DNA from: a virus
Lineage: Duplodnaviria; Heunggongvirae; Uroviricota; Caudoviricetes
Virus record (IMG/VR): IMGVR_UViG_3300046779_000230
Coordinates: 23,562-87,561 of that record
Length of the DNA stretch: 64,000 bases
Strand: one strand, 5' to 3'
Shown here: positions 3,126 to 30,394 of the stretch, piece by piece
How the letters are laid out: each line of letters opens with the position of its first letter
Position numbering within the stretch: the stretch's first letter is position 1
Made by a program: the position numbers and the translations under genes
The notes under the pieces: generated by a model
Seen by the model: the letters and a program-made list of their open reading frames with translations, nothing else
Database searches by the model: none
Told to the model about the DNA's origin: nothing

Positions 3126-3126
3126 A

Positions 3127-5475
3127 TTAGTTAGCCTTTGTGAATGTGTCGTGAGACAATCTTGATTTTTCTAGTTGGCGAATTCTTGGAACAAGTTTCA
3201 TTGCAACTCTGCCAATGATAGCCTTACGGTTCTGTAACATTCGCTCAATGCGTTCTTTTTCACCAACAGAAAGAGAAGACATATCTCTACCACGAAGGAT
3301 ACGCTTCTTCATAGTTTTGATAGCTAATCTGCGAGCACGTTTGTTGATAGTAGAATTATTAGAGTGACGACGTAAGGCTAGCTGTGCTGCACGTTCGCGT
3401 TTAGCTTCAGTCTTGCGCATACGGAATTTAGCTTTCATTCGCTCAATGCGCGAAAGAACTTCTAAGATAGCTTGTTCATTAACAGAAAATTCTAATTCAT
3501 CTCCGCTTTCTGGATCGATAACTGCAAGTTCGTCTTCGTCGTAATCATTGACAATATCATCGTCTGTGATTAGATTCAACAACTCGTCAATCTCATTTTC
3601 TGGAACGTCTTGTTCAGGTTGTCCAGCAGTAGAAATTTCTATCTTTTGATTTTCGTAAGCAGCGTCACAAGATGTTTCTTCCATTAGTTGAGCGTAGTGA
3701 GCCCAGCTGTTTTCTTCTGCTAGTTTAGATCTGTTGAGATTTTCAATTTCTTTCTTGACCTTTAGCGTATCATTACCATATTTTCTATGGTGATTGTGTA
3801 CAGCTGTTAGGTAAGCCAAACGCTTTTTAGCTGCTGTCTTATCAGACAACAGAGAGCCTTTGTCCATTTGTTGGATTTTCTTCCAATCGTCTGTTTGGCT
3901 TTCGCTCATATGTTTGATCTTCATCTTGCGAACAGTATCGCTTTGACCATGAGAAACTGAGTGACCAAGTTTTTTCTTATCAGCTGGAGACATAATATCA
4001 CCTGCTAGATTAGAGTTGCTGCTTGTGTCAACTTTAGCAACAGTGGCTTCTTTTAGTTTATTAGGTTTTAGGGTAGCGTCGTAGTCAATACCAACTTCAG
4101 TAGCCAACACTAACATCTTGTCTAAGATTGCAAGAGCTTCTGCATTCAGCGCTTTGGTTTTAACTTTACGTAGAGCATTGTTGACCAATGACTCTGGATT
4201 AGAAGAAGACTCAGCAGTTTCAATGCCGAGAATAGTAGCGATCATTCTCGCGACTTTAATCTTGTCTGTAGATTTCAAAGTCTTGTCTGTTAGTCCTTCG
4301 TTCATCTCGTCCTTACCTTTTTCTTTGTAATTAGTTAAGAAGCCTTCAATCTCATGGCGGTGCATGTGCCAGTAATCTTCGTGGTGCATAAACTCACCGA
4401 CTCTGTCTAGAGATTCTTTAGCTTTCTCGTGGTAGTTATTCCAGTCTTGTACTTCTTGTTGTGTTAGTTCTTCACCCTTTAAGTGGCGGTCATTGATAGC
4501 CATATAAGCATCAGTGCTCTTGAGAGCATTTAGAACAGCAACAGGATCTTTTTCGCCAGATCTAGCGATTGTGTCTTGGAATGCCTTCGACGCTGACTCT
4601 GCTTGGTCGAAGTTTTTAGTTGTATATCCCTTGAATGTGATTTGCTTTTTAGCATAACCAGTAGAGACATCTTCTTTTATTTGGTTTTCTGAAAGTGTAA
4701 CATCTTGGATCCACTTACGAGAAACATCGCCATTAGAATTGGCAAGGACAAGGTAATTGCTACCTCTGTCTAAAATTTCATAGCGTTGGTTGTTAGACTC
4801 AACAAATTGTCCAATGTGATAGATTTGACCTTTGTGGTATTTTTCTCTTAGAGAATCTACATCGAACTTGACATTTTCTTTTATCGCTTCAAGACCCATA
4901 CCAGAACGAATATCGTTCATTAGTCTCTTGCCATCAATGTCACGCATTGATGAAGGCAGACCAGTCTTGAATGTGGCGTAGTCGCCTTTAGAAGCCAGCG
5001 AACGCATTTTAGTGGCAGACATACCAGAAGCATCATCGGCGTCTGGATCTCGTTCACCAGCAGAAACTACTTGAATTGTATCAAAGTGGAATTCAGATCC
5101 ATTGTACTTGTTCAGCAGTTTCTCGTACTCTGGAATACGGTCACTGCCAGCAACCATAATCAGATTCTTGTACTTTTTGTTTAGTTCTTTTGCAGCTTCG
5201 ATGAATGTTCTAACTTGAGCGTTGGCTGCAACAAAGTGTGTGCGTGGAAACATAAGGTTCAAATAGTGAACCTTTTTATCTACTGGTAATGGATTCTTTT
5301 TAGCGTCTTGAGATTTTGACGCATAGATCGCATGGTCGGCACCACGCTGTGTGGCTAGTTTCTTAACTGCCTTGACTAGAAGTTCGTGTCCTGTAGTTGG
5401 TGGATTAAATCTACCAAAGGCGAACACAACTGATTTTGACGGTAATTCTTTTATTAATTGTCTGTAGTTTTTCAT
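3127..5475 (-). CDS. cytidylyltransferase/NMNAT-like nucleotidyltransferase domain fused to a C-terminal extension of about 580 aa with no recognised function
   Basis: The N-terminus has FGRFNPPTTGHELL (GxFxPxHxGH-type motif) and MSATKMRS (ISxTxxR-type motif), as in archaeal-type NMN adenylyltransferases. The rest is Lys/Glu-rich with a basic tail. A TATAAATA late motif lies 31 nt upstream. Confidence 0.6.
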   Translation of the reverse strand: MKNYRQLIKELPSKSVVFAFGRFNPPTTGHELLVKAVKKLATQRGADHAIYASKSQDAKKNPLPVDKKVHYLNLMFPRTHFVAANAQVRTFIEAAKELNKKYKNLIMVAGSDRIPEYEKLLNKYNGSEFHFDTIQVVSAGERDPDADDASGMSATKMRSLASKGDYATFKTGLPSSMRDIDGKRLMNDIRSGMGLEAIKENVKFDVDSLREKYHKGQIYHIGQFVESNNQRYEILDRGSNYLVLANSNGDVSRKWIQDVTLSENQIKEDVSTGYAKKQITFKGYTTKNFDQAESASKAFQDTIARSGEKDPVAVLNALKSTDAYMAINDRHLKGEELTQQEVQDWNNYHEKAKESLDRVGEFMHHEDYWHMHRHEIEGFLTNYKEKGKDEMNEGLTDKTLKSTDKIKVARMIATILGIETAESSSNPESLVNNALRKVKTKALNAEALAILDKMLVLATEVGIDYDATLKPNKLKEATVAKVDTSSNSNLAGDIMSPADKKKLGHSVSHGQSDTVRKMKIKHMSESQTDDWKKIQQMDKGSLLSDKTAAKKRLAYLTAVHNHHRKYGNDTLKVKKEIENLNRSKLAEENSWAHYAQLMEETSCDAAYENQKIEISTAGQPEQDVPENEIDELLNLITDDDIVNDYDEDELAVIDPESGDELEFSVNEQAILEVLSRIERMKAKFRMRKTEAKRERAAQLALRRHSNNSTINKRARRLAIKTMKKRILRGRDMSSLSVGEKERIERMLQNRKAIIGRVAMKLVPRIRQLEKSRLSHDTFTKAN

Positions 5476-8041: not shown

Positions 8042-8734
8042 TCATGCTAAATTGGTATACTTTCTGTCCCACTTGTAGATCTGCTGATACAGCTTGGGTA
8101 TGGCAGCATTGTTTCTGTGGTCGTAGTTGAAAGTCTTTAGGATGTACTTTAGAGTAGTAGAACCTCTGGTTGTACCAGAAGCCAGTAAGTCTGTTAGAAC
8201 AGCCTTGGGTCTGTTTACCTTAAAGTCCAGATAGACACAGTGGGCGTATGCTTGTATCTCGTCAAACTCTGATAGGTATCTACGTTCGGAATCTATCTTG
8301 TCCTTACCAACACGCTTGTAAGGAACTACATAATCACTACATTCATCGTATCTTCTATCATACTGCATAAAGTGTATGATCTCGTGCATTAGTGTTTGGA
8401 TCAACTTGAACTTAAAACGATCCCAAGTTTCTTGGTTGAATATGAATTCGTTAAAGTGTTTGGTATGAATGTTTAACAGTATCTGTCGTTTTTCTGGATC
8501 GTACTCGCCACTGACAGCAATGTAACTTTTATAGACTTTAGCCTTTGATGGCTCTTTTAAAAAGTCTAGTCTGGTTCTCCACTTTCTAAAATAAAATGAG
8601 AGACCTGCCGCATCGTTTCGATACAGATCAAGGTCTCTCCAAACTTTAGATGGGATTAGTCTAGCCCTAAAAGGTCTTTCCTTGAAGTTCAACAACTTCA
8701 TCCAATCGTAATTAGCTGTTTCTAGGAATTTCAT
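8042..8734 (-). CDS. putative zinc metallopeptidase-like protein (HExxH)
   Basis: The 230-aa product contains TLMHEIIHFMQ. No other motif was recognised. Confidence 0.4.
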   Translation of the reverse strand: MKFLETANYDWMKLLNFKERPFRARLIPSKVWRDLDLYRNDAAGLSFYFRKWRTRLDFLKEPSKAKVYKSYIAVSGEYDPEKRQILLNIHTKHFNEFIFNQETWDRFKFKLIQTLMHEIIHFMQYDRRYDECSDYVVPYKRVGKDKIDSERRYLSEFDEIQAYAHCVYLDFKVNRPKAVLTDLLASGTTRGSTTLKYILKTFNYDHRNNAAIPKLYQQIYKWDRKYTNLA

Positions 8735-8755: not shown

Positions 8756-9361
8756 TTACCTAATAGAATTCTCCAAGAAGGCAAGAACTTTCGCTTGTTC
8801 CTCTAAGTTAGTGTTGTTAAACTCAGTAATATAGGACATCAGTTCAAAATTTGATAGCAAGTTACTATATTTAGTTTCTCTGCCTCTTAGGAATTGTTCG
8901 GACTGGTCTGAGCCACGATCCTTGTAGCGTTGCTCCAGTAGTTCTTTTGGAGCCTTGAGATACACAACAATCAACTCAGTGTTTGGCAAGTTCATACAGA
9001 ACTCCAAGAAAGATTGATTAAAGACTCGGTCACCTTCGAACAGGATGTTACAGTTGTTAGAAGCGATCCACTCTTGTAGTGGTGGTTGAACTGCCATGGA
9101 CAAGCGATCTGTACCAGCGAATAATTCACCTTCGTTGTACTTACCAAGGATGTACAAGTCATGCTCTTTATTATAGAGAGCAGACACTAACTTAGCAGGT
9201 TCAGTACCGATAAATTCTTTACCTTCCATGAACTTACGGAATAGCGTAGTCTTGCCTGTACCTGGACTTCCACCAACGGCAATGATCTTTCTAGTCTTGA
9301 CTTCGTTCTTGATCAACTTAACTTCGATTCGATCTGAAATACCAAATTTATCAATTAACAT
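8756..9361 (-). CDS. P-loop kinase-like NTPase (candidate DNA or nucleotide kinase of the modification cassette)
   Basis: The 201-aa product has the Walker A motif AVGGSPGTGKTTLF. Its start overlaps the upstream radical SAM gene by 7 nt. Confidence 0.55.
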   Translation of the reverse strand: MLIDKFGISDRIEVKLIKNEVKTRKIIAVGGSPGTGKTTLFRKFMEGKEFIGTEPAKLVSALYNKEHDLYILGKYNEGELFAGTDRLSMAVQPPLQEWIASNNCNILFEGDRVFNQSFLEFCMNLPNTELIVVYLKAPKELLEQRYKDRGSDQSEQFLRGRETKYSNLLSNFELMSYITEFNNTNLEEQAKVLAFLENSIR

Positions 9362-10785
9362 CTTACACCTATCATTCTCTTGTATTGTTGGAGTTTCATC
9401 TTGTTGATGGACGAAACATTGTATTTAGACTCTAGTTCATTATATCTCAGCTTTAAGATTTCGTCAATCTTAATTCCTAGATTTGCAACTGTCATGATTT
9501 GAAATTCTGCAATCTTGTTTATTGGGTCTCTACGAGACATTATAGAATTAGCGTACATGGAACATATAGTATAGTTAAGGTTCTGACTCTTTAATGTCCA
9601 TGTATTGTTGTCTGTTATTTCATATCCATAAATTTCTGGATTTAAACTAAATTCAGAACCATAGTCACCCTTGTTCTTTTTGAATAACATTAGTGGATAA
9701 ACACTTATATGGTCAACAGGATTATTTTTATCCATAATCCAATCATTGGTTTCTTCAAAATACTCTACGGTGTCATAAGGTAATCCATAGATCAAACCAA
9801 TACCTATGTTTACTTTACCATTCCACTTTTCTTTTAACCAAGACAATCTATCTTTGACTTTGTTCGGCGCGAGACTTTTACCAATGGCAATACCACTTTG
9901 CTTATTGAGCGTTTCAACTCCAAAGAAAGTGCCAACTAATCCAGCTTCTCGTAGCAAGTCAGCTTGATGTGGATACTTGTTTAACAAGTCTAGTCTAAGG
10001 TAACAAGAAAAGTTAATCTTGAAAGGCAGAGATGTGAACAGTTTGTGTATTGCTTCAATCTTGTCGTTGTCATCATTGAAGGTATCATCTGTTATGTAGT
10101 AGTTGGTACATCCAGTTGCTTCCCAAGTTTTTATCATGTCATCTCTGACTTCTTCGATGTCTCTTAAGTAAGTACCTTTCTTTTTACCAATCAAAGAATA
10201 CCCACAGAATTTACATTTGAAGATACACCCACGCGCCAACTCCAGCGGTAGAGACTCTCCGTCAAGAATAGAAAAGTCTTTTCTCCACCAATGAGTCTTG
10301 ATGTTATCCATCTTTGGCTCTGGGAATTGTTTGGAATCAAAAATCTTTGGTTGCTGTACACCATCTGCCACACCCTTTGTGTATTCAATGATAGCATCAT
10401 CTGCGTATCCTAGGATGTAAGTATCAATGCGATCATCAGAAGCCCACAAGGATCTAACACCACCATAGATCAACTGCACATTAAACTGTTTGATGTATTG
10501 AAATAGTTTGTCTACATCTGCTGGTGTCATGTGTGGAAATAGCGTTTGGTCTCCCCAGAAAAAGGTAGAAGAAAAACCAACCCATAATGTATTGTCACTG
10601 ATGTGAACACTCAATGCTTGTATGATTTCATCAACAGTAAAGTATTGAGTAAAGTCAATAACTCTAGATGTATAACCAGCGTTTTCAAGAGCAGAAGCTA
10701 TTCTGTAAGAACCCAAGTTTCTTTGGATCTGAGAATAGGTTTCTGGAGACGTTGGTCCAGCAGCAATAATAATGCAATCAATCAT
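9355..10785 (-). CDS. radical SAM enzyme with an N-terminal B12-binding-like (class B-type) domain
   Basis: ELARGCIFKCKFCGYS carries the CxxxCxxC motif. It follows a Rossmann-like N-terminal domain (MIDCIIIAAGP...LGSYRIASALENAGY). Confidence 0.8.
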   Translation of the reverse strand: MIDCIIIAAGPTSPETYSQIQRNLGSYRIASALENAGYTSRVIDFTQYFTVDEIIQALSVHISDNTLWVGFSSTFFWGDQTLFPHMTPADVDKLFQYIKQFNVQLIYGGVRSLWASDDRIDTYILGYADDAIIEYTKGVADGVQQPKIFDSKQFPEPKMDNIKTHWWRKDFSILDGESLPLELARGCIFKCKFCGYSLIGKKKGTYLRDIEEVRDDMIKTWEATGCTNYYITDDTFNDDNDKIEAIHKLFTSLPFKINFSCYLRLDLLNKYPHQADLLREAGLVGTFFGVETLNKQSGIAIGKSLAPNKVKDRLSWLKEKWNGKVNIGIGLIYGLPYDTVEYFEETNDWIMDKNNPVDHISVYPLMLFKKNKGDYGSEFSLNPEIYGYEITDNNTWTLKSQNLNYTICSMYANSIMSRRDPINKIAEFQIMTVANLGIKIDEILKLRYNELESKYNVSSINKMKLQQYKRMIGVRC

Positions 10786-11804
10786 TAAAAGAATTCTTCT
10801 AAACCAACTTGAACAGGTTTCTCATCATCAAACAACCACTCTAGGTTTTCCATCTTGCCACTACGTAAGAACAATGGAAACTTTTCTTTGTCAATACCAC
10901 GCTTGGAATCTAGACGCAAGTCAATAGTTTCGTTACGGGCTTGCCACATAACATTCCAATCAATACCATGCCAACCGTCGCCTTCGCATTTGATAATCTC
11001 TTCAGCTTGGCGATCAAGGTAGTAACCAAGATAACGCCCATGATTTTCTCTAAAGATTTTCTTAAAAGAACACAGGCATGTTTCCATGGTAAAGAAATCA
11101 ATTTGGTCTGTTAGATCTGGGAATCTTCTTCGCGTTTCTTCCAGAATGTCTCTGGCTTGTACTTCAAGAGATCCATACTCGCTTCCAGTGAGTTTTCTAT
11201 CATAATCGTCATCCTTGCCAAGGGCAAGTAGTAATCCATTACGATGAGAACGGGAACCATCATAATCGTCCAACATGAGAGAAGTAGGAGTAACAAGCAC
11301 ACCAGCAGTATGTTTAAGGTGCTGAAGATAAAACCAAGTGCTGTAACGCCCAAACTTATGCAAGCTGTTTTTAAGTACTGACCACAACGCATCAAAGTTT
11401 TGCGTCTCATTATCTCCGTAGTACGATTCGAGTGTTTCACGTTGATCTTTCTTTCCAATAAACTTTTGATACGATTCGAACATGGCAGGCAAGTGACCTT
11501 TGTTCCACTTTGTATCAGTTTGATATCTTAATCGCTTGTAGTTAGCAGTATTCCACTGCTCCATTCTATCAACAGTAGCCAACTCAAAGTCAGGAAACTC
11601 ATTCATTAGAATCCAAGCTGTTGGTAGATAGTATGTGTTACCATATAACCAACACAACCACAATCGTTGTTCATCGTTGTGTTCGTATCGCTCGTTCATG
11701 TAGTTGGTAGCCCAAACAGCTGGATCGCAGTCGTCATACTTTAACGACCATGCATACCAACGAATAAAGGCTTCACGTCGATTTTGTTTTAATCTATAAT
11801 CCAT
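10785..11804 (-). CDS. conserved hypothetical, predicted all-alpha, Trp/Tyr/Arg-rich protein; positional candidate for an aGPT-Pplase-like transferase
   Basis: The 339-aa ORF overlaps both neighbours by 1 nt. The functional guess rests only on its position within the cassette. I cannot verify any family motif from memory. Confidence 0.35.
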   Translation of the reverse strand: MDYRLKQNRREAFIRWYAWSLKYDDCDPAVWATNYMNERYEHNDEQRLWLCWLYGNTYYLPTAWILMNEFPDFELATVDRMEQWNTANYKRLRYQTDTKWNKGHLPAMFESYQKFIGKKDQRETLESYYGDNETQNFDALWSVLKNSLHKFGRYSTWFYLQHLKHTAGVLVTPTSLMLDDYDGSRSHRNGLLLALGKDDDYDRKLTGSEYGSLEVQARDILEETRRRFPDLTDQIDFFTMETCLCSFKKIFRENHGRYLGYYLDRQAEEIIKCEGDGWHGIDWNVMWQARNETIDLRLDSKRGIDKEKFPLFLRSGKMENLEWLFDDEKPVQVGLEEFF

Positions 11805-12445
11805 TATTTTAAAAAGTCTTCAAGAGATGGCTGATCCATCAGTGCATCTCGTAGCCATGCTTTACCAACTGTATCAATAGCAGCTTGAGTCTTTGCTTTC
11901 TTTTTGTCACCCCAAGTGTAAGACTCTAAACCTTCGCGACGGAATTGTTCACGAGCTTTTTGTGGTGGTAATGCTTGTAGTGGATTTACGATGGCGTTGT
12001 CTCTGTAAGCAATTTGCTCGGCACGTGTAGCGAATAGTGGTTGGTCACTGCGGAGTGAACCTGTTGGATCAACTGCCCAGAAGACCAAACCATTGCGTAT
12101 GTGCCAGCTGACAGAGGTTGGTGTACAAGAGATTTTAAGTCGTTGGACTTTTCGTTCTTCAACTGCATATTTGATCCAAGAGTCCCAGCACTTTGACGCA
12201 TATCCCTTTCCTTCTTTACCTTCAACTGTAACGATTTCATACAGGTTTGCATAGCCATCTCGATTGAATGTGGCAAAGATTAAAGAGACAACTTCACCGT
12301 TGTCTTCGAATGCCATTGGCAGATTCTTTTCATAATTATGAAAGCGAGTCCATAATGAATGTGCAGCCGATAAGAACTTGGTGTTCTTACCAGCTGGACT
12401 TGAATCAATAATTTGTTGAACTTTAGTTGAGTTAATGAATATCAT
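11804..12445 (-). CDS. GNAT-fold N-acetyltransferase-like protein
   Basis: VTVEGKEGKGYASKCWDSWIKYA matches the acetyl-CoA loop pattern (Q/R-x-x-G-x-G/A). It is followed by RLKISCTPTSVSWHIRNGLVFW. Confidence 0.5.
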   Translation of the reverse strand: MIFINSTKVQQIIDSSPAGKNTKFLSAAHSLWTRFHNYEKNLPMAFEDNGEVVSLIFATFNRDGYANLYEIVTVEGKEGKGYASKCWDSWIKYAVEERKVQRLKISCTPTSVSWHIRNGLVFWAVDPTGSLRSDQPLFATRAEQIAYRDNAIVNPLQALPPQKAREQFRREGLESYTWGDKKKAKTQAAIDTVGKAWLRDALMDQPSLEDFLK

Positions 12446-13142
12446 GTTGATAATCTACAGCGCTTTTAATAGAGACTGCACGCAATTCCATTTTCAAGTC
12501 GCCATCAAGTTTAATGTATGTATTCATTGGAACTTCCATAGTTGGAAGAAACAATCCAGCACGTTGTGGAATATCGGCAGTAGAAGTAATTATACTACCA
12601 TTAGTCATTGTAGTCAAATATAATGGTCGTTTGCCATTACGGTAAACAGTTACCTCTTTGGTAGATGCAATAAGTTGACAAACAGCCATGGACATATTAC
12701 TGAACTCTTCTAGTGGACTTTTTGCGTGTAGCACCAATTCACTGTCGTTCTTTGTTTCAGTTTTATAACCGTACAACTCTTGCCACTTTTCTGGCAGTTC
12801 TTGGGTAATAACACCATTGTGAACAATAGCAACATTATCGTTACCCAACGGTTGGTTATATTCCAAGTCGCTAGTTGAATAACGGCAGTGTCCAATCATA
12901 TACAAGTTTCCATCTTCATTCAAGAATGATTTGAAGTTATCATTATGCATGTGTTTCTCAACGAATTGATCAGCTGGGATCGCTTCTTTGATTGTAACAA
13001 GGTTACCTTTATTCCAAGCAGGAATAAAAGAAATACCAGTGGCGTGCAAACCACGAATCTTTGATTCAACGAATACACGTTTTAAGGATTCAAAATCCTT
13101 CAGAGAAGGATTCTGTATAACTGCTCCGATAACGGCACACAT
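12432..13142 (-). CDS. stand-alone class-II (Ntn) glutamine amidotransferase domain
   Basis: The protein starts MCAVIGA, giving the nucleophile Cys2. It also has IGHCRYSTSD..NQP, VHNGVITQ and KNDSELV. At 236 aa it has no fused synthase domain. Confidence 0.8.
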   Translation of the reverse strand: MCAVIGAVIQNPSLKDFESLKRVFVESKIRGLHATGISFIPAWNKGNLVTIKEAIPADQFVEKHMHNDNFKSFLNEDGNLYMIGHCRYSTSDLEYNQPLGNDNVAIVHNGVITQELPEKWQELYGYKTETKNDSELVLHAKSPLEEFSNMSMAVCQLIASTKEVTVYRNGKRPLYLTTMTNGSIITSTADIPQRAGLFLPTMEVPMNTYIKLDGDLKMELRAVSIKSAVDYQHDIH

Positions 13143-14536
13143 TAGAAGAAACTTTCAAGTGAATTAGATTTATCTGACTCTGGGTGATACTTCAACAACA
13201 CTTCTGCGCCAAGTTTTTTCTCGCAGTAGTCATACCACTCTTGACTTTCCCACATACCAGCAGAAACACCATTCCAAAGATGACGCTCAGAGCCGTCTTC
13301 GTTTCGGTGACCTGCATGCTCTTTGTTCAAACGACGAGATTCAACAAACTCATAACGGCAGTCTTCATACTCTTTTGAACCAAGTTCAAGCATCTTTTCA
13401 CGGAAATAACAAACCAGTGAAATACGTTCGGCTTCTTCATCCAACAATTCAATTGGAGTGTTACCGTGCATAACTTCGTGGTTGTTGATCAACAGCAAGT
13501 CGCCTGGACGTACATTGACAGCAACGCGATACTCTGGAGCAATTAGATAACCACCCTTGTAATTGCCGTTGTTAGAAAGAACCAACAAGTTAGAAAGACC
13601 ACTATTCAAGTCGCCTGCATCAAAGTGTGCTGCAGTACGGAATGTTTTGTTAACAGTGATTGTAGTGAATGGAGTTTCTGGAACCAAGAATTGTGGATCA
13701 AGTTTCTTGGCAGCTTCCATTTGATTATTGTAACGCCATGGCATCAACTCTTTAAAACCTTTGGCAAGAGTCTGTAGGAATGGGAATGCCATCTCAAACT
13801 TCTCACGATTCTTTTCAGTATAAGAAGTTGCACGACCATAAGGGATACGTGGGTAACGATCAAACCAACCAGCAATACCAGAGAACACACCGTTGGCATA
13901 AGTTGTTTGACAAACATATTTCTGCACAACACGCTTGGCTTCGGCACGTTGTTCATCCAAACTCAATTTACGAGTACGCTCAACCCACTCATCAAAAGTG
14001 AAATTGTCCTTTTTAACCGCCTGAATACTCCAAACATTGTTCTTATTAGAAGGCTGTTCTTTCTTGTTGGCGTGTTGACGCTTTAGTTCTTCGATTGGAT
14101 CTTCACCAAAGATGTTGGCTTTGGGATTAGAAAAGTAATCAATCACATCGTACTCATACTCAGTGACCCACTCTCTGTTACCCAACTTGTCTTTTCGTGG
14201 ACCAGCTGCGATGCCACGGTTTTGAGTCTCAACAGCTGCTTCACGTAGCCCAACATATGCAGCCAACTGTTCTTCTTTTGAGAAGAAGTTCTTACGGAAC
14301 TTAAATGCAATACGCATTTCATCCGTACCTTTAGGGCAGCTGGAGCAGTCTTTGTCTGTGTCGCAAGATGCTTGTTGAGCGATATCGCAGTTTACTGGCA
14401 TGTAAACGTCGGCGTCATAATCAACTAGAATATCGTAATGTGATTCGTCTACAAACTGACCCAGAAGATGAGAACAGTCGTGCTTTTTATCAGCCACGAT
14501 AATTTTAACATTTCTACCTTCATCTATTTTACTCAT
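13142..14536 (-). CDS. 2OG-Fe(II) dioxygenase of the TET/JBP family
   Basis: FRTAAHFDAGDLNSGLSNLLVL (HxD..[ND].N.G), KGGYLIAPE, HEVMHGNTP and ERISLVCYF align with the catalytic-core strands of metazoan TET as I recall them (AHxHRDxHNxxNG; GGVAVAP; HATTP; RISLVFY). There is an N-terminal Cys cluster, NCDIAQQASCDTDKDCSSC. Confidence 0.75.
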   Translation of the reverse strand: MSKIDEGRNVKIIVADKKHDCSHLLGQFVDESHYDILVDYDADVYMPVNCDIAQQASCDTDKDCSSCPKGTDEMRIAFKFRKNFFSKEEQLAAYVGLREAAVETQNRGIAAGPRKDKLGNREWVTEYEYDVIDYFSNPKANIFGEDPIEELKRQHANKKEQPSNKNNVWSIQAVKKDNFTFDEWVERTRKLSLDEQRAEAKRVVQKYVCQTTYANGVFSGIAGWFDRYPRIPYGRATSYTEKNREKFEMAFPFLQTLAKGFKELMPWRYNNQMEAAKKLDPQFLVPETPFTTITVNKTFRTAAHFDAGDLNSGLSNLLVLSNNGNYKGGYLIAPEYRVAVNVRPGDLLLINNHEVMHGNTPIELLDEEAERISLVCYFREKMLELGSKEYEDCRYEFVESRRLNKEHAGHRNEDGSERHLWNGVSAGMWESQEWYDYCEKKLGAEVLLKYHPESDKSNSLESFF

Positions 14537-14547
14537 TTATCTTCTCC

Positions 14548-15954
14548 TTAAAACTTGAAACTGTCGTAATTGTCTTCTCTATGTATTCGTTTACCAAAAG
14601 AGCTTTTATCAAAAACAGGTCCATCATCCTTTTCCTGTCCAGAATCTGACAATCCTTGCTGTGCAGATTCTTCAACATCATATAACTTCATCTTGGAACG
14701 ATCGATACCAACTACGAATCGTTTATAGAAGCTAGGGTCATTATAACGGTTCTTCAATTGCTTGACGATAATCTGATTCAAGGCTTCTAACTCTTCGTTT
14801 GATACCAACGCAAACATAAAGTCGGCAGTGGCAGGTAGACCAAACGATTCAGATGTATCTTCAAGACCTGGGTCTGAATTGGAATAACCAGAACGAGTAG
14901 TTTGTGTAGCCGAAAGAATCGGAACATTATACTCAACAGCTAATCCACGTAGTTCTTCTGCAATGCTCTTGATATATGTATAAGAGTTTACAGAACCACC
15001 TTGCTTCATACGCTGAGACGCACAAATGTTCAAATAGTCAATCATAATAATATCAGGGGCGAAATCTCGTTTAAGTTTCAGTTCTTCCAACAGCGCTCTA
15101 AAGTGACCAGCATGAGCACTTGCAGTTGGATATTCTTTGATGATCAGTTTACCTTTGGTCTTGTTGGCAATCTTTTGAAGACGATTATCAAAGATGTCTT
15201 TATCAACAACCTTCAATTCATCCATTGTCAAGTTCAACAAGTTGGCATCGATACGTTCAGCGATACGTTCTTCAGCCATTTCCATGGTAATGTAAAGCAC
15301 ATTACGCCCTTGGGTCAAACATCCAGCAGCCACGTGACACATGAACAATGATTTACCAACACCAGTACCAGCCAGTGCAATGTTTAGAGTTTTCTTGGAC
15401 AGACCACCTTTAGTGATCTTATTGAACATCTCTAAGTCAAAGGCAATCTTTTCTTCAACGCGATGGTAGTAATCAAAACGTGCATCATGATCTCCCAAGT
15501 AATCGTGACCAACGTGACTGTCAAAACAAACAGACAACGCTTCTGAAAGGATACTTGGGATAGCGTCTTGTGTGTGTTGCTTGTCTCTGCCGTCAATAAT
15601 TTTGATTGAATCAACAATCGCGTTATAGACAGCTTTGTCTTTACAAAACTTTTCTGTGTTAGTGACTAACCAATCACTGTTGATTGGAGCTTGTGCTAAT
15701 CCATCAATGACTTCGTTAATCTCAACCAATTCTTTATCGATAAGATCAGTACGGTTACTGACCTCAATGGACAAGATTTCTTTGGTTGCTGGTTTATTAT
15801 ATTTGTTAAAGAATTCGATAATCTCTGAAATGATCACCGACTCTTTTCTGTCGGCAAAGTAACTCTTCTTAAGGAATGGAATTACTTTGCGACAGTACTG
15901 TTCATCATAAATTAAATTTGCTAGAATCGTCTGTTCAATTCTCATCAATACCAC
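14548..15954 (-). CDS. gp41: replicative DnaB-like helicase (T4 gp41 homolog)
   Basis: It has the Walker A motif LAGTGVGKS, NVLYITMEMAEERIAERIDANLL and SAIAEELRGLAVE, which closely parallel T4 gp41. The start may instead be the ATG at 15945. Confidence 0.93.
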   Translation of the reverse strand: MVLMRIEQTILANLIYDEQYCRKVIPFLKKSYFADRKESVIISEIIEFFNKYNKPATKEILSIEVSNRTDLIDKELVEINEVIDGLAQAPINSDWLVTNTEKFCKDKAVYNAIVDSIKIIDGRDKQHTQDAIPSILSEALSVCFDSHVGHDYLGDHDARFDYYHRVEEKIAFDLEMFNKITKGGLSKKTLNIALAGTGVGKSLFMCHVAAGCLTQGRNVLYITMEMAEERIAERIDANLLNLTMDELKVVDKDIFDNRLQKIANKTKGKLIIKEYPTASAHAGHFRALLEELKLKRDFAPDIIMIDYLNICASQRMKQGGSVNSYTYIKSIAEELRGLAVEYNVPILSATQTTRSGYSNSDPGLEDTSESFGLPATADFMFALVSNEELEALNQIIVKQLKNRYNDPSFYKRFVVGIDRSKMKLYDVEESAQQGLSDSGQEKDDGPVFDKSSFGKRIHREDNYDSFKF

Positions 15955-16237
15955 CAGTATATGAAATACTATTATTCTGTAATTCTTCGAGAATAATAAA
16001 TTTCAGTAGTTCACCGATGTACATTTCAAATTCTTCGGTCTTATAAGTGACGCCAGCATCTTCATGTACATCATACTCAAAGTTCATCTTGCAAGTGTCA
16101 TCAACACCATCGTTGATTTCCTCAAATGAAACTTTCCCATAAGAGAAAATTATACCTGAGAATGGACCAGAGGTCAACTTAACTGCCTCTACTCCACTCT
16201 TGCGAGACTCTACAACAATGTAAGGTTTGTCACTCAT
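15935..16237 (-). CDS. hypothetical acidic protein
   Basis: The 100-aa ORF overlaps both neighbours. No motif was recognised. Confidence 0.45.
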   Translation of the reverse strand: MSDKPYIVVESRKSGVEAVKLTSGPFSGIIFSYGKVSFEEINDGVDDTCKMNFEYDVHEDAGVTYKTEEFEMYIGELLKFIILEELQNNSISYTGGIDEN

Positions 16238-17300
16238 CGAATTCTAGTTCTTCTAATGCTTTGTCAAGGTCTTCGCTTTGTACCATATCGACTGTGCCGA
16301 TAGAGTATTTGTCCTTCACAAAATCATAGAAAGACTTTTGCTGCAAGATAGGTAGCCAGAAGTCTTTGGTATCTGTATCCTTGATGCGATACTTCTTGTC
16401 TTCAATGACACCAGTTTCTAAATCTACCTTTGAATACCAACCATTGCTAGGCTTGACAACATGTCCTGACTCGAGTGCAAGATCAAGTAGACCGCTCCAC
16501 TTGCTAATGCCACCGTCAAAAGATACGGAAACAGGGATCTTAGATTTTTCTTTAACATGACGAGATTTTTCAACGTTGATAATAAAGTTGTAACCTACAA
16601 CTTCAGTGCCTTCTTTTTCTTGCTGGCGACCAAGGATATAAATGTTATCAGCAGAGTAGTATGAACCAGTGCCACCACCAACGATGTCTTTAGGATACAA
16701 ACCAATTTCTTTGTAGGTGTGGTTAACAACTACCATTGGAATGTCTTTAAGTGTCAAGTGTGGAGTAATCATTCGGAACAATGACTTCAACTGCTTGGCA
16801 CGACTCATGTCTGCAACAGACTTACCATCTAGGGCATCTTCAACTTCTTTCTTAGAAGCCAAGTTACCAATAGAGTCGATGATAATGATAACGTGTTCAC
16901 CACGTTCGATGTTTTGCAGCTGCTGCATGCAGTCAAACTTTAATTGTTCAATGTCGGTAATAGGAACATGAACAACTCTTTTAGTATTAATCCCAAAAGC
17001 GTCAAAGTAAGACTGAGGAGTACCAAACTCAGAATCATAAAAGAGAACAACAGCATCATCATATTTGTCCTGATATGCTTTTGCCATTAGCAAAGAGAAT
17101 GCAGTCTTAAAGTGCTTTGATGGACCAGCCCACATAGTAAGACCTGGAGTTAGACCACCATCAAGGCGACCAGCCAGCGCGACGTTAATGACTGGGATTG
17201 AAGTAGGAATCATATCCTTCTTCTTAAAGAACTTGGAATCCGATAGGATAGAAGTATCTTTGATTGTAGAATTCTTTCGGATTTTATCTAGAATACTCAT
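16230..17300 (-). CDS. uvsX: RecA-like recombinase UvsX
   Basis: It has the Walker A motif WAGPSKHFKT (T4 has GPSKSFKS), a size of 356 aa, and the expected position next to gp41. Confidence 0.9.
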   Translation of the reverse strand: MSILDKIRKNSTIKDTSILSDSKFFKKKDMIPTSIPVINVALAGRLDGGLTPGLTMWAGPSKHFKTAFSLLMAKAYQDKYDDAVVLFYDSEFGTPQSYFDAFGINTKRVVHVPITDIEQLKFDCMQQLQNIERGEHVIIIIDSIGNLASKKEVEDALDGKSVADMSRAKQLKSLFRMITPHLTLKDIPMVVVNHTYKEIGLYPKDIVGGGTGSYYSADNIYILGRQQEKEGTEVVGYNFIINVEKSRHVKEKSKIPVSVSFDGGISKWSGLLDLALESGHVVKPSNGWYSKVDLETGVIEDKKYRIKDTDTKDFWLPILQQKSFYDFVKDKYSIGTVDMVQSEDLDKALEELEFDE

Positions 17301-17606: not shown

Positions 17607-18194
17607 TTATGTTTTCTTAGAACGTGGCACATCGAACACGAATGTAACTCTGACATTATCACCAATGTTCTTTGCACCGTGTGGTAATTTATTGTTAAAC
17701 CAAAGCAAAGTTCCAGGCTCTACTGTAACAGATTCATCTCCCACAGTGTATATGTATCTTCCTTGAATTGAAAGATGATAGCGATCCTTTGTTCGGTAAT
17801 AATCACCGATGTCAATGTGTGTTCCAACTACACCACCAACTGGCAGTGATAAGAAACCACATCGACTGACTTTCTTGAAGTGTCGTTTGACAAAACCAAT
17901 AACTTCAGTGTGATGTTTGATTGCTGGAGTTGGAATGCACAGTTCGGTATCTCCAACATAATCATCTATGTTTTCAATACCACCCATAATTAACTGCAAC
18001 ACACCAGCTTGAACATCTGGGAATCCATACGTAAGCATGGACTTAACGCCATCAACTCGCGTTTGAATTCCCCAGTCTTCTGGATGTTGCTCCAACTGCG
18101 CCAAAATCTTTGACACATTGAGTCCAGTTTTGATTATCTTAATGTTATCCAAAGAAGTCTTCCAGTGAACTTTCTTCTTGCGTCTTCCAACCAA
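17607..18194 (-). CDS. cupin/2OG-Fe(II) oxygenase (Asp/Asn beta-hydroxylase-like)
   Basis: GTHIDIGD (HxD) and NKLPHGAKN (distal His) lie in a beta-rich protein of about 190 aa. The annotated ATG overlaps the polymerase gene by 50 nt, so the true start is uncertain. Confidence 0.55.
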   Translation of the reverse strand: MVGRRKKKVHWKTSLDNIKIIKTGLNVSKILAQLEQHPEDWGIQTRVDGVKSMLTYGFPDVQAGVLQLIMGGIENIDDYVGDTELCIPTPAIKHHTEVIGFVKRHFKKVSRCGFLSLPVGGVVGTHIDIGDYYRTKDRYHLSIQGRYIYTVGDESVTVEPGTLLWFNNKLPHGAKNIGDNVRVTFVFDVPRSKKT

Positions 18195-20631
18195 TTGGTT
18201 CGATTACGTTTTGAAGAGCATCTAAAAACACCTTTTCAAATTGAAGGTCATAGTCTATGTATGATTCCAGATTAAACTCTTTTGGCAATTCACTGGTGAA
18301 TGCGATAACGTCTTCTTGGAATGGATTGGGTTTTCTGACATAAACAAACTTGATCTTATCACCATCACGAATGGCTTGGTACTTGTTATCAATACCAAAA
18401 CGCTTGCAGTAGTGGTTGAACAGTAAGGCACCACGAACGTGGATTGGTGTACCCTTAGTGTAGATTGGAGAACCAGCGTACTGTTTCATACCATTAACAC
18501 CACGAGGGAATGCAATCTCCTGAACAGGCAGCTTATTGAACACTTCCCTAAAGTCATTAACATACTTATGTAGTTTCTTTTCGTCACCTTCTAGAATAAC
18601 ATTAATAGAGTCTTTTAACTTATCACGAATCACAGCTGGCGTTGAAGACTTGACCATCTCAAGACCCATAACTTTGATCTTGGGTTTTGCGTATTGAACA
18701 CCTTCAGAGTTGTGCACGTTTAGAACATAACGCTTTTTGGCAGTCCAGATACCTTTGTCGGCTAGAACTTCGCGCTTCATAACCATCTTCTGACTATATG
18801 CGTTCATGTACTTTGCCAACTCTTGATAACCGTCATCAATGAACGGCTGAAGAACTTCTTCGCAAACTTTGTCCATGAACTTAATCTTGGCATTGGTGTC
18901 TTTACCCTCACAAACCTTTTCTACTAGATTCTCTAGTGTCAAGTAGATTGAGTCAGTGTCGATCGCAACAACGTAATCTTTACCATCAGTCTTCATAGTC
19001 TTGTTCATGAATGCATTTAGCTTGTTAGCCATCCAACGAATAGACAATTGACCTGAAGTTGTAATACCTTCAGCCATACGAATATCAAAGTAACGGAAAT
19101 ACTGATTACCCATGGCACCGTAAGCAGAGTTAAGGGCAATCTTCATAGCCATCTGCAAGTTATTCAATCGCGAGATGTCTTTCAACAAGTGCTTTTTAGT
19201 CTTGTCTTTTTCATACTCTTGTTGAACACCAAGCATCTGCTTCTTGAACTTGGAACGATCCTTGTACATCTTTTCCATCAACTCAGGCATAAAACCTTTG
19301 ATGTCTTTACGATAACACCAACCGTTTGCAGTTAAAGCCAAGTCACGACGATGTGCATAGCTAGTATCAACTTCTTGGTTCAGCAGCTTTTCTACCGTGA
19401 CTGGAATCTTCTCATGAGTCAAAGTCTCTGGTGAGATATTGTACTGCATAATCAAGTGAGGGTACAGTGAGTTCAAGTCAAAGGATGCCATCCACTTATG
19501 TAAACCAATCAACGGATCTTTAACGAATGCGCCTTCGAATTGAGAGTCTTTGCCAGAATAAGTCTTGGCTGGAATAACAATACGCTTTGTTCGCAAATGG
19601 TTATAGATGATAGAATCCCACATACGAACTTGAGAGTAAACATCTTCTGGATTGATCTTGGCATTATAAGCCATAGTCAAATGCAGTTCGATCAGACGCA
19701 TCTTGTCTTCCATGCGGTCAACCAATTCAACGTCGTGGATGTTATACTCAACAAACTGTTGCCAGTGGTTGGTGTAAAACTCTCGGAATGTATCTCCTGG
19801 GTTTTCTTTCTTCTTGTCGCCTAATTCTTGCTCAGCGATGTAGTCCAGTCGATAAGACTCTTGCTTGGAGTATGTATACTTTTTATACAACTCAAGATAG
19901 TCAAGCTGACTAATACCAGTAATGTCGTAGTGGATCTCTTCGTTACCTTTGATGAATGTCTTACGCTCATTCACCATACCCCAAGGGCTAATTTTATTGG
20001 CAAAGGTGTCGCCAAGTTCACGGGCAATGCGACGAACCAAATATGGCACGTCAAAGAAGTCAGTGTTCCAACCAGTAATAATGTCTGGATAGTTTTGTTG
20101 CCACCAGATCATAAACTCTTTGAGCAAGTGTTGCTCATCGCGACAGTTGATATAAACTACATCATCGCGATTGTGAACGAATGCACCAATACCAAAAGTG
20201 ATGATGCGTTTAGAGATTAGATCTTTAACAGTAATCAACAACACTTCTTCGTTGGCTGTGCGAATGTCTGGGAATCCAGACTCAGTTTTGGTTTCAATGT
20301 CAATGGTAAATACCTTGAGCAATTCCATATCCCAGTTAACATCGCCTTCATAGGTGTCACTGATATATTGATATGCGTAGTTGGTATTACCAAACACTGA
20401 AAAGCCTTGGACGCCATCATAACGCTTGACAAAATCTCGCGTTTCTCTGATCGATCCAGGCTTTACTTCATCCACGTAGATACCTTCAAGAGTTTTCCAA
20501 TTAGATTGACTCTTGGAAGTCACATAGAGTGTTGGGTAAAAGTCTACTTTACGATTGTATGCTCTACCTTTATCATAGCCTCGAACGAAAATCTTATCGC
20601 CGATGGCATATACTGATGTGTAAAATTCCAT
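18145..20631 (-). CDS. gp43: family B DNA polymerase (T4 gp43 homolog)
   Basis: The motifs are Exo I FTIDIET, motif A FDLNSLYPH, motif B KIALNSAYG and motif C VAIDTDSIY. Confidence 0.95.
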   Translation of the reverse strand: MEFYTSVYAIGDKIFVRGYDKGRAYNRKVDFYPTLYVTSKSQSNWKTLEGIYVDEVKPGSIRETRDFVKRYDGVQGFSVFGNTNYAYQYISDTYEGDVNWDMELLKVFTIDIETKTESGFPDIRTANEEVLLITVKDLISKRIITFGIGAFVHNRDDVVYINCRDEQHLLKEFMIWWQQNYPDIITGWNTDFFDVPYLVRRIARELGDTFANKISPWGMVNERKTFIKGNEEIHYDITGISQLDYLELYKKYTYSKQESYRLDYIAEQELGDKKKENPGDTFREFYTNHWQQFVEYNIHDVELVDRMEDKMRLIELHLTMAYNAKINPEDVYSQVRMWDSIIYNHLRTKRIVIPAKTYSGKDSQFEGAFVKDPLIGLHKWMASFDLNSLYPHLIMQYNISPETLTHEKIPVTVEKLLNQEVDTSYAHRRDLALTANGWCYRKDIKGFMPELMEKMYKDRSKFKKQMLGVQQEYEKDKTKKHLLKDISRLNNLQMAMKIALNSAYGAMGNQYFRYFDIRMAEGITTSGQLSIRWMANKLNAFMNKTMKTDGKDYVVAIDTDSIYLTLENLVEKVCEGKDTNAKIKFMDKVCEEVLQPFIDDGYQELAKYMNAYSQKMVMKREVLADKGIWTAKKRYVLNVHNSEGVQYAKPKIKVMGLEMVKSSTPAVIRDKLKDSINVILEGDEKKLHKYVNDFREVFNKLPVQEIAFPRGVNGMKQYAGSPIYTKGTPIHVRGALLFNHYCKRFGIDNKYQAIRDGDKIKFVYVRKPNPFQEDVIAFTSELPKEFNLESYIDYDLQFEKVFLDALQNVIEPIGWKTQEESSLEDFFG

Positions 20632-23470: not shown

Positions 23471-23679
23471 AGCGAGCGTGAAGGATAGCCAACAGCAAAG
23501 CCACTGGTGCCAATTTGGAAACTGCGAGAGGCTTTAGAACTCATTTTCTGAGTGGTGCGACGACGAGACTTTTTGGCTTTGACCACTTCAATCTGACCAC
23601 CACGAGCAAGGAATTGCTGTACAGCTTCAGATGTTTCTTCACGAACTTGTGATTTGGTTTTGTAGATAGTTGCTTGCAT
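23467..23679 (-). CDS. hypothetical small basic protein
   Basis: I moved the start to the ATG at 23679, which follows the strong RBS AAAGAGGA. The product contains FLARGGQIEVVKAKKSRRR. Confidence 0.45.
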   Translation of the reverse strand: MQATIYKTKSQVREETSEAVQQFLARGGQIEVVKAKKSRRRTTQKMSSKASRSFQIGTSGFAVGYPSRSL

Positions 23680-29737: not shown

Positions 29738-30394
29738 TTAAAAGTCGAATGTAGAATCAGATTCAACAGCAACGTAATACACTAGATCACCAGCAGACTT
29801 AAAGCGAGAGATTTTCTTGCTGGAAATACTAACAGTATATTCACCTGGGAGCATCTTAAGGTTTTCAACTTTCAAGTTGACTTTGAAAGACTTGTCTGTG
29901 GATCCAACTGGCTCGCTGAAAGAGTTACCAGTTGCATTCTTTTTATCGCCAACTACAGCAGTAATAGTAGTGCCGTCACCAACAATAGAAACGTCGGATG
30001 CACGAAGAACTGAAGCAGTCTTGTGAATCATGTTCAACATGGCAGCAGTCATTGTGAACTCGATGTCAGCATTCGGGAATGTGATAGACTTTTGCGGAGC
30101 AGTCAAGACAGTTGCATCAGCTGCAAAGTATTTGATGCTCATGTTACCTTGCTTGATAGTAACATACTTTGTATCAAAGTCCAATTCAGGATCTTCGAAC
30201 AACGACATGGCACCAAGGAATTCGTTTAGATCGTAGATACCAAAGTCTGGGAATGTCTCAGAAACAACAGCGTCTGCCATCACGTTCTTTTGAGCAGAGA
30301 TTGTTGCCAGTTTATTACCTTGCTTCAACAGAAGGTTTCCATTGATGCCTGCAAAGTTCTTAAACAGGGCAAGGGTTTCTTTTGATAGTTTCAT
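29738..30394 (-). CDS. gp45: sliding clamp (T4 gp45 homolog)
   Basis: MKLSKETLALFKNFAGINGN parallels T4 MKLSKDTTALLKNFATINSG. The C-terminus YYVAVESDSTFDF parallels T4 NYVVALEADSTHDF. Confidence 0.95.
   Translation of the reverse strand: MKLSKETLALFKNFAGINGNLLLKQGNKLATISAQKNVMADAVVSETFPDFGIYDLNEFLGAMSLFEDPELDFDTKYVTIKQGNMSIKYFAADATVLTAPQKSITFPNADIEFTMTAAMLNMIHKTASVLRASDVSIVGDGTTITAVVGDKKNATGNSFSEPVGSTDKSFKVNLKVENLKMLPGEYTVSISSKKISRFKSAGDLVYYVAVESDSTFDF

Follow-up and report, generated by a model that had tools for sequence, protein, structure and literature searches.

A putative thymidine hypermodification cassette with polymerase-like C-terminal tails beside the replicative helicase gene of an uncultured myovirus

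Introduction

Phage enzymes of the broad TET/JBP group oxidize thymine in DNA, and a ParB-associated subclass of them is "consistently linked" to GATases (glutamine amidotransferases), P-loop kinases, and AADT-type amino acid:DNA transferases (O'Toole et al. 2025 bioRxiv/2026 PNAS; PMC13229309). Phage clusters that combine a thymine dioxygenase with a GATase, a P-loop kinase, and an AADT, and whose products are uncharacterized, are found in the same work and in Lee et al. (2021 NAR; PMC8989533, Fig. 2 sequences 22-25). Here, we analyze a cassette of this kind from a tailed phage (Caudoviricetes), on a stretch of 64,000 nucleotides (positions 23,562 to 87,561 of the IMG/VR record IMGVR_UViG_3300046779_000230) which we call the window. 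It covers about 38% of a genome of ~160-170 kb. A preliminary description of the window had proposed that the cassette follows the logic of thymidine hypermodification, and this was supported, as its dioxygenase, transferase, and kinase relate to DNA-modification families. The statement that its combination of enzymes matches no known pathway had to be given up because such clusters are already contained in the two papers.

Two characterized pathways serve for comparison. Phage PaMx11 makes 5-acetylaminomethyl-deoxyuridine (dU) with the AADT gp46, the FAD lyase gp47, the GNAT gp48, and the 5-hydroxymethyl-dU DNA kinase (5-HMUDK) gp49; its 5-hydroxymethyluracil (5hmU) is pre-replicative and comes from a thymidylate-synthase-like hydroxymethylase. 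Phage M6 makes 5-aminoethyl-dU with the AADT gp51, the pyridoxal phosphate (PLP) decarboxylase gp52, the radical SAM (rSAM) isomerase gp53, and the kinase gp54. The methylene intermediate of AADTs accepts varied nucleophiles such as amines, hydroxyls, and even thiols (PMC8989533). In trypanosomatids, base J is formed by JBP1/2, which hydroxylate thymine in DNA, and a glucosyltransferase, which transfers glucose onto 5hmU. A link between modification and replication is known from T4, where the alpha-glucosyltransferase binds the sliding clamp gp45 (PMC13216743). The T4 polymerase gp43 ends in ASLDFLFG, and its residues 892-SLDFLF-897 occupy the gp45 pocket as a clamp-interaction peptide (PMC12746103). 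The C-termini of gp43, gp55, and gp33 resemble one another and act as interchangeable clamp epitopes (PMC2988020).

The cassette of the window has in common with the catalogued 5mYOX clusters a Tet_JBP protein, a glutamine amidotransferase, a P-loop kinase, an AADT, and its metavirome origin. As in those clusters, a dUMP hydroxymethylase or C5-methyltransferase is not adjacent, and the TET core is nearest to a ParB-adjacent TET. It differs from the ParB-dependent subclass in that ParB was not found in the cassette or the window. Further differences from the catalogued clusters are the length of its TET (464 amino acids (aa) with a family-specific N-terminal extension of ~230 aa, as against ~290-330 aa in characterized enzymes), the fixed site just after gp41 within a T4-like replication module, and the polymerase-like tails of TET, GNAT, and ADDT. 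With PaMx11, the cassette shares the AADT Pfam family, the kinase PHROG, a GNAT that likely acts last, and a predicted product of the N-acyl aminomethyl-uracil class. Unlike in PaMx11, however, a TET acting in DNA would supply the 5hmU, a glutaminase stands in place of the FAD lyase, and the GNAT has no detectable homology to gp48 (hhalign probability 0.1%). With M6, it shares an AADT, a kinase, and a tailoring enzyme of the radical SAM type within a single operon, but it has no PLP enzyme, and its rSAM enzyme is TsrM/OxsB-like with an N-terminal Rossmann domain, whereas gp53 is spore-photoproduct-lyase-like. The likeness to base J lies in TET/JBP hydroxylation of thymine in DNA followed by a transfer onto 5hmU. 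Sister phages carry TET, a cytidylyltransferase, and a glycosyltransferase at the same locus, whereas the window cassette is predicted to proceed via phosphorylation and amine substitution. Finally, the T4 epitopes offer a precedent both for a clamp-binding DNA-modifying enzyme and for a short acidic/hydrophobic C-terminal peptide, which here is a predicted one. In the window, this peptide is a near-exact copy of the polymerase tail on at least three enzymes of a multi-step thymine pathway, all of which would bind the clamp.

Results

We propose that the cassette is probably a post-replicative thymidine hypermodification cluster that would turn thymine of the phage's own DNA into a bulky base. 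In it, a dioxygenase (TET), a kinase (KIN), a transferase supplied with ammonia by a glutaminase (ADDT and GAT), and an acyltransferase (GNAT) would act one after the other, joined by an rSAM enzyme in the window phage and with TET, ADDT, and GNAT tethered to the sliding clamp. According to the listing of open reading frames (ORFs) of the window, six ORFs lie on the minus strand between 8756 and 14536, all in the same direction and exactly where the preliminary description had placed them. Their junctions overlap by 1 nt at 13142, 11804, and 10785, by 14 nt at 12432-12445, and by 7 nt at 9355-9361, in accordance with the overlapping or abutting junctions described before. The cassette lies directly downstream of gp41, as had been noted, and this gene is of the DnaB type by both Pfam and PHROG (Table 1). 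The sequence motifs that had been quoted for the six ORFs, including the GNAT loop GKEGKGYAS, are all present and invariant in the orthologues.

TET: The protein belongs to the Tet_JBP family (PF12851, 9.1e-27, residues 234-380), with 93.7 bits against a cut-off of 34.9, and to phrog_24024 (3.5e-164). Its closest solved relative in a profile search of the PDB is TET2 (2.4e-4). The iron triad H304-x-D306 and H357 and the 2-oxoglutarate (2OG)-binding R371 are invariant in 25 orthologues. The TET/JBP-type core that had been read from the sequence is thus confirmed, and a placement with small-molecule or protein hydroxylases was not borne out. Between its catalytic core and that of the ParB-adjacent TET of Pelagibacter phage HTVC112P, the identity is 45.7%. 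In that phage, a ParB-like protein, the TET (302 aa), and an FkbM-family methyltransferase are encoded in a row (3009-5231) and annotated as "DnaJ / SNF2 DNA repair protein"; this is likely a ParB-dependent thymine dioxygenase system in a cultured isolate. A tblastn search with the ParB_N protein of a variant locus (L040) found no ParB in the window, and the cassette has no ParB domain.

Substrate base: The motif pair of C5-methyltransferases (PCQxFS and ENV) was absent from the window and from 1.07 Mb of related loci in a motif-level search, and a DPPY-type methylase motif was absent from the window. Because of these missing C5-methyltransferase motifs, the ParB-adjacent TET as the closest core, the thymine oxidation described for this group (PMC13229309), and the fact that ADDT and 5-HMUDK-type kinases are known to act on 5hmU only, thymine is likely the substrate.

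GAT: This protein is predicted to be a stand-alone class II glutaminase with an N-terminal nucleophile (Ntn) fold. The glutamine site is complete, with M1-C2 at the N-terminus, R87, N109-G110, and D133 invariant in 26 orthologues, and the top PDB match is the glutaminase domain of GlmS. The 120 best homologues all have 223-247 aa and thus always lack a fused synthase domain. Hence, the earlier reading as an Ntn glutaminase without a synthase domain was correct.

GNAT: The AlphaFold2 (AF2) model of this putative acyltransferase has a mean confidence (pLDDT) of 57.5, with residues 1-105 at ~70-80. The top 50 Foldseek matches of the model in the PDB are all GNAT acetyltransferases, with weak E values of ~2e-3, and a sequence-profile search of the PDB gave no match. 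The loop EGKEGKGYAS conforms only partly (GKEGKG) to the canonical (Q/R)xxGxG/A.

ADDT: The preliminary description had assigned the 339-aa ORF as the transferase by position only. This guess proved right, since the protein matches PF18724 with 77.3 bits against a cut-off of 26.2 and keeps the essential Glu and Cys. The same Pfam family contains the proven glycine:DNA transferases M6 gp51 (1.4e-46) and PaMx11 gp46 (1.6e-27), and the protein falls into phrog_3271 (1.3e-54). E241, C245, and K248 are invariant in the window family, phage Cr30, M6 gp51, and PaMx11 gp46; this Glu and this Cys are essential in M6 gp51 and ViI gp247 (PMC8989533). A direct hhalign comparison with M6 gp51 was not significant, so the membership relies on the Pfam model and the motif.

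KIN: The predicted kinase is a member of phrog_800 (6.3e-15), as are the proven 5-HMUDKs M6 gp54 (2e-39) and PaMx11 gp49 (5e-30), and it aligns with M6 gp54 in hhalign (probability 90%, E 1.6e-6). The Walker A motif GGSPGTGKTT (GGxPGTGKTT across orthologues; residues 31-39) is invariant. With respect to these relationships, the earlier suggestion of a 5-HMUDK could be substantiated, but not with respect to the Pfam model of such kinases (see "Discussion").

rSAM: The best NCBIfam matches are B12-binding rSAM families, with TIGR04072 (5.6e-18) covering residues 24-341. The cluster motif CxxxCxxC lies in a partial TIM barrel. The AF2 model (pLDDT 87.6) has TsrM (5e-12) and OxsB (3e-11) as top Foldseek matches, followed by the cofactor-free AprD4 and by MiaB/RimO, which are also close in fold. 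In the profile search of the PDB, only a marginal match to TokK was obtained. The B12-binding model PF02310 did not match the window protein and matched just 2 of 120 homologues. Taken together, the class-B-like assignment with a Rossmann-like N-terminus holds, as a predicted B12-type architecture, on the TsrM/OxsB folds and the TIGR04072 match from residue 24. Compared with M6 gp53 (SPL-like isomerase), the hhalign probability is 0.6%, and the two are alignable only at the cluster motif and the rSAM core. By these comparisons, the window enzyme is unrelated to gp53, the only characterized rSAM enzyme of DNA hypermodification.

C-terminal tails: TET, GNAT, and ADDT end in short peptides that closely resemble the C-terminus of the window's own gp43 polymerase (Table 1). 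With the pattern [SGAD]L[DE]xF[F..], as defined for TET orthologues, such a tail was found in 90/94 orthologues of TET, 59/62 of GNAT, and 49/50 of ADDT. It occurs in none of the orthologues of GAT (0/76), the kinase (0/41), the window-type rSAM (0/14), gp41 (0/89), UvsX (0/68), and two further ORFs of the locus, orf141 (0/35) and orf230 (0/38), which are described below. An unbiased scan of related loci gave 262 tailed ORFs among 1271, namely TET (96), GNAT (63), ADDT (54), gp43 polymerase (45), a variant glycosyltransferase (2), and one rSAM paralogue (2). The glycosyltransferase is tailed in most loci of the glycosyl variant, and in the amidoligase variant, the replacing GNAT has the end ...VDLNSFL. 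Among cultured phages, the TETs of the T4-like DLP6 and C48C1 are tailed; those of HTVC112P, P12024L, and S-CBWM1 and the enzymes of M6 and PaMx11 are not. These data suggest that TET, GNAT, and ADDT may be recruited to gp45 via their polymerase-like peptides and that the DNA would be modified as it is copied. Such polymerase-like tails, here taken as predicted clamp peptides, are new for hypermodification enzymes. The orthologues of gp41 (window 14548-14580) and UvsX (16230-16260) have conserved ends of another kind, ...[FY][DE]GFKF and ...LEELEFDE, unlike the polymerase tail, which may be other replisome docking peptides.

Conservation of the locus: Scanning IMG/VR with TET yielded ~350 relatives, of which the best 80 contigs (70-99% identical) were examined. 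Several metagenome contigs from Logan, JGI, and NCBI likewise carry the exact TET and GAT proteins in identical gene order. In dozens of the examined contigs, the order uvsX-gp41-TET-GAT-GNAT-ADDT-(orf141/rSAM)-KIN-orf230 is kept with protein identities of 50-99%. Such recurrence in independent contigs over this range of identity shows the ORFs to be real genes. Within the cassette, conservation is highest for GNAT (77-92% identity across the family, ~80-90% in the examined contigs) and lowest for GAT (50-65%).

The conserved core consists of five genes, TET, GAT, GNAT, ADDT, and the kinase. The six-gene cassette of the preliminary description therefore stands for the window, but not as the conserved unit, since rSAM is carried by a minority of relatives only. 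It is an optional accessory tailoring gene, always located between ADDT and the kinase and sometimes in two copies. In most contigs, this slot is filled by orf141, an ORF of 141 aa without a family match (L097:11655-12080 and ~35 other loci). In some, it is empty. One contig (L097) has rSAM together with a Trp-halogenase-family flavoenzyme, and another (L102) has two rSAM paralogues. A homologue of orf141 was not found in the window.

Two larger replacements occur behind the same TET. In the amidoligase variant (L038, L040, L042, L044, L102), TET is followed by GAT, an Amidoligase_2 protein, a different GNAT, a ParB_N protein, ADDT, and KIN. The ParB_N protein is confined to this variant, and a homologue of the amidoligase was not found in the window. 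In the glycosyl variant (L051, L072, L073), a cytidylyltransferase and a glycosyltransferase replace GAT through KIN.

Smaller inserts of 600-700 nt occur between TET and GAT and between GNAT and ADDT. We considered homing endonucleases, and this was rejected as the inserts of L010 (TET/GAT junction, 200 aa) and L030 (GNAT/ADDT junction, 189 aa) are small 2OG-Fe(II) oxygenases of PF13759. For the commoner insert between GNAT and ADDT (225-242 aa), no Pfam match was found. The PF13759 oxygenases are gained and lost between the genes even among 99%-identical genomes. The 200-aa oxygenase between TET and GAT in L010, L017, and L106, for instance, is a presence/absence polymorphism, as the flanking proteins are 99-100% identical to those of the window.

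Table 1 Features of the cassette and its surroundings in the window, with positions, strand, and main evidence or predicted role (E values follow the name of the matching family)
Feature	Position	Strand	Remark
TET, TET/JBP-family Fe(II)/2OG dioxygenase, 464 aa	13142..14536	-	Predicted thymine C5-methyl hydroxylase on DNA
GAT, stand-alone class II (Ntn) glutamine amidotransferase-type glutaminase, 236 aa	12432..13142	-	GATase_6 2.9e-10
GNAT, GNAT-fold acyltransferase, 213 aa	11804..12445	-	Acetyltransf_1 21.6 bits vs cut-off 20.7
ADDT, amino acid:DNA transferase (formerly aGPT-Pplase clade 2), 339 aa	10785..11804	-	PF18724 1.9e-21
ADDT catalytic motif E241-T-C-L-C245	11070..11084	-	E-x-x-x-C
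rSAM, radical SAM enzyme, N-terminal Rossmann-like domain (class-B/cobalamin-type architecture), 476 aa	9355..10785	-	Radical_SAM 1.1e-13
rSAM [4Fe-4S]/SAM motif C187-x3-C191-x2-C194	10204..10227	-	Invariant in 43 homologues
KIN, P-loop kinase, 201 aa	8756..9361	-	Predicted 5-hydroxymethyl-dU DNA kinase; Ploopntkinase3 (PF18751) 30.7 bits vs cut-off 27
TET tail SLESFF (residues 459-464; ...NSLESFF)	13145..13162	-	Predicted clamp-interaction peptide
GNAT tail SLEDFLK (...PSLEDFLK)	11807..11827	-	Predicted clamp-interaction peptide; P206, S207, L208, E209, F211, L212 invariant (GNAT orthologue alignment)
ADDT tail GLEEFF (...VGLEEFF)	10788..10805	-	Predicted clamp-interaction peptide; G334, L335, F338 invariant
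gp43 polymerase tail SLEDFFG (...SSLEDFFG)	18148..18168	-	Gene 18145-20631; reference clamp-interaction peptide
gp45 sliding clamp	29738..30394	-	33% identical to T4 gp45, E 9e-27; proposed docking platform
gp41 DnaB-like replicative helicase	14548..15954	-	DnaB_C 2.7e-20 (Pfam), phrog_19 5e-128; fixed upstream anchor of the island
orf230, conserved 230-aa ORF, HExxH	8042..8734	-	M116, H117, E118, H121 invariant in 18 orthologues

Surroundings of the cassette: Beyond gp41, further upstream, follow UvsX, a thioredoxin, a cupin oxygenase, and the gp43 polymerase. The GC content is even along the window (~0.37-0.43), so that the island is not a compositional one. A scan for promoters and terminators came out near the shuffled expectation, and the transcription unit was not delimited by it. 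By gp41, the nearest cultured relatives are Methylophilales phage Melnitz and T4-like cyanophages (~65% identity), which points to an uncultured Kyanoviridae-related myovirus as the source. A relative of the cassette was not found among GenBank phages in a DNA-level search, which gave only a 218-bp patch in DLP6. Around the closest TETs from T4-like isolates (Cr30, DLP6, C48C1), the neighbouring genes differ, and hence there is no cultured model.

Downstream of the kinase, orf230 is present in nearly all relatives, and it is kept where glycosylation genes replace GAT to KIN. No relative of it was found in Pfam, PHROG, or the profile search of the PDB. One idea is that this candidate member of the pathway may be a metalloprotease that removes stalled covalent ADDT-DNA adducts. 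Also downstream of the island, beside DUF6267 and DUF6321 proteins, lies a gene for a 782-aa protein (3127-5475, minus strand) with a cytidylyltransferase-like N-terminal region (phrog_3041, phrog_395).

The window also encodes a Trp-halogenase-family flavoenzyme (28277-29734, minus strand), flanked by the clamp loader and the sliding clamp. Paralogues are found inside the cassette beside rSAM in L097 (13506-15047) and beside an rSAM homologue in L013 (6470-8008), where no TET cassette is present. A partnership of the window rSAM with the halogenase, as in these two loci, was considered and dropped, as the halogenase is 18 kb off and 27% identical to the cassette-borne one.

Discussion

For the proposed thymidine hypermodification, we infer the order of reactions as follows, while homology is the basis for naming the enzymes and for regarding their active sites as intact. 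The dioxygenase would hydroxylate thymine in newly made phage DNA to 5hmU, and the kinase would phosphorylate the hydroxyl to give 5-PmdU. The transferase would then form an adduct between its Cys and C6 with an exocyclic methylene, which a nitrogen nucleophile captures. As this nucleophile, we favour ammonia, which the glutaminase would set free from glutamine; 5-aminomethyl-dU (5-NmdU) would result. N-acylation of this amine by the GNAT would give 5-acetamidomethyl-dU or a related N-acyl derivative. In the window phage, the rSAM enzyme would add a radical step, e.g., a methylation or a rearrangement. Across the GNAT and amidoligase variants, TET, GAT, ADDT, and KIN are constant, and the acyl-forming genes differ (GNAT-A in one, the amidoligase and another GNAT in the other). 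We prefer ammonia and acylation because every core gene is used in this way, because the methylene intermediate of AADTs takes varied nucleophiles, because the variants keep those four genes while the amide-forming enzymes change, and because the PaMx11 GNAT gp48 acetylates 5-NmdU to 5-acetylaminomethyl-dU (5-AcNmdU). The purpose is likely protection from host nucleases.

Several observations weigh against this proposal. The kinase is expected to act on DNA, too, and has no tail. It matches PF18751 and not the HMUDK_HMUD1 model PF18748, which M6 gp54 does match. The GNAT is assigned from a Pfam score just above the cut-off and from a model of modest quality. No fusion or co-fold evidence that ties GAT to the transferase was found, and ADDT and kinase operate without any GAT in Cr30, M6, and PaMx11. 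The published relatives linked to GATases and AADTs require a ParB activator, for which the window has no match. The window covers 64 kb of the ~160-170 kb genome, and a methyltransferase or a hydroxymethylase may be encoded elsewhere. Lastly, the phage is known from its sequence alone, without an isolate.

The chemistry could differ from the proposed one in several ways. In a serious rival to the ammonia route, ADDT would attach a free amino acid (e.g., Gly, Ser, Gln, or Glu), which is what happens in M6, ViI, and SP10. The role of the Ntn protein would then be that of an amidohydrolase acting on a glutaminyl or gamma-glutamyl adduct, or of an ammonia source for the amidation of the appended carboxylate, and the GNAT would acetylate the amine of the amino acid. 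The characterized PF18724 enzymes all use an amino acid or a polyamine and never ammonia, GAT adjoins Amidoligase_2, its usual partner in carboxylate amidation, in variant loci, and in the Ntn site, the residues for binding the alpha-amino and carboxylate groups of glutamine or a gamma-glutamyl moiety are retained. However, the majority cassette has no ATP-dependent ligase for carboxylate activation, a glutaminase is needless for the direct transfer of Glu, and PaMx11 gp48 acetylates only the free aminomethyl group and not the glycinyl adduct. On balance, we regard the amino acid route as possible but less likely than not. Much less likely is an action of the dioxygenase on 5-methylcytosine (5mC) with hypermodification of cytosine via 5-hydroxymethylcytosine (5hmC). 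Phage TETs of clades A and B do oxidize 5mC, and phosphorylation of 5hmC by P-loop kinases has been proposed for some contigs (PMC8256090). This is opposed by the lack of C5-methyltransferase motifs and the 5hmU specificity of the known transferases and kinases noted above, and by the finding that a C5-methyltransferase co-occurs with just 6% of phage 5mYOX pathways. Most improbable of all, to the point of being hardly credible, is a cluster for the synthesis or alteration of a small molecule, e.g., a nucleotide or amino acid metabolite. While GATase, GNAT, rSAM, and kinase domains are frequent in small-molecule pathways, the Tet_JBP and ADDT families are DNA-specific, characterized phage thymine dioxygenases are inactive on nucleosides and nucleotides, and the enzymes carry polymerase-like tails.

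Other doubts concern the tails and the rSAM gene. Rather than being clamp peptides, the shared tails might bind another common partner or serve as a folding or turnover signal. The absence of a tail on the kinase would fit this, and so would the window homologue of the late sigma factor gp55 (42090-42656, minus strand), which ends in ...TEREGLDQ without the visible clamp motif expected from T4 gp55. A head-tail adaptor (57347-58084, minus strand; phrog_211) also ends similarly, in ...APLDFFLG; no further ORF of the window fits the loose tail pattern, and the similarity is probably due to chance. Yet the tail nearly equals the polymerase's own C-terminus, at the site where the T4 clamp peptide has been solved in complex, and it is limited to DNA-acting enzymes of T4-like phages. 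We consider a different function of the tails unlikely. With somewhat less reserve, one may ask whether the rSAM gene came into the operon as a passenger, with no role in DNA modification. Most relatives lack it, its product has no clamp tail in the window, and its homology to the M6 isomerase gp53 does not extend beyond the rSAM core. Moreover, homologues that are 48-52% identical occur without TET, ADDT, or KIN in flanks of <=8 kb, in L013 (near a Trp-halogenase and a 2OG-oxygenase) and in L104 (an unrelated 209-kb contig). Against a mere passenger, rSAM always occupies the slot between ADDT and KIN in these phages, across lineages whose TETs are 71-83% identical, in the GNAT variant as well as the amidoligase variant, and at times in duplicate. 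In the window, its ORF overlaps both neighbours, and an rSAM paralogue of L102/L103 ends in ...IGLENF, an ADDT-like tail. In our view, these points leave the passenger a conceivable but not a favoured explanation.

Returning to the tails as predicted clamp peptides, modification docked on the clamp would travel with the replication fork and would be restricted to phage DNA. ParB is a CTP-dependent DNA clamp that activates related thymine dioxygenases on double-stranded DNA, and the gp45 tail may be the solution of phages without ParB. In its full form, this line of thought is tentative, and we put it forward with less than even confidence: TET, the transferase, and the acyltransferase, and in sister phages the glycosyltransferase, would dock on gp45 in place of the ParB clamp, and the product would be an undescribed base, an N-acylated 5-aminomethyluracil with nitrogen from the glutamine amide, altered further by rSAM in the window phage. 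If true, such a coupling to the replisome would explain how phage DNA is marked efficiently and selectively after replication.

Current annotations do not reveal this kind of system. In GenBank, the TET homologues of Cr30, DLP6, S-CBWM1, and HTVC112P are annotated as "SNF2 DNA repair protein," and the proven kinases M6 gp54 and PaMx11 gp49, as well as phrog_800, as "terminase small subunit." Such misnomers conceal the cassettes from keyword searches. The lineage is abundant in metagenomes, with the ~350 TET relatives in IMG/VR and 451 protein clusters for GNAT and 1999 for GAT. Thymidine hypermodifications stop restriction enzymes as well as CRISPR nucleases, and new DNA chemistry and enzymes can be drawn from them. 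The GNAT, amidoligase, and glycosyl variants at one locus amount to natural swap experiments. The putative clamp tails offer a testable answer to the question left by the 2026 PNAS paper, i.e., for what reason and in what way thymine is modified by phages after replication, and what takes the place of ParB in systems without it.

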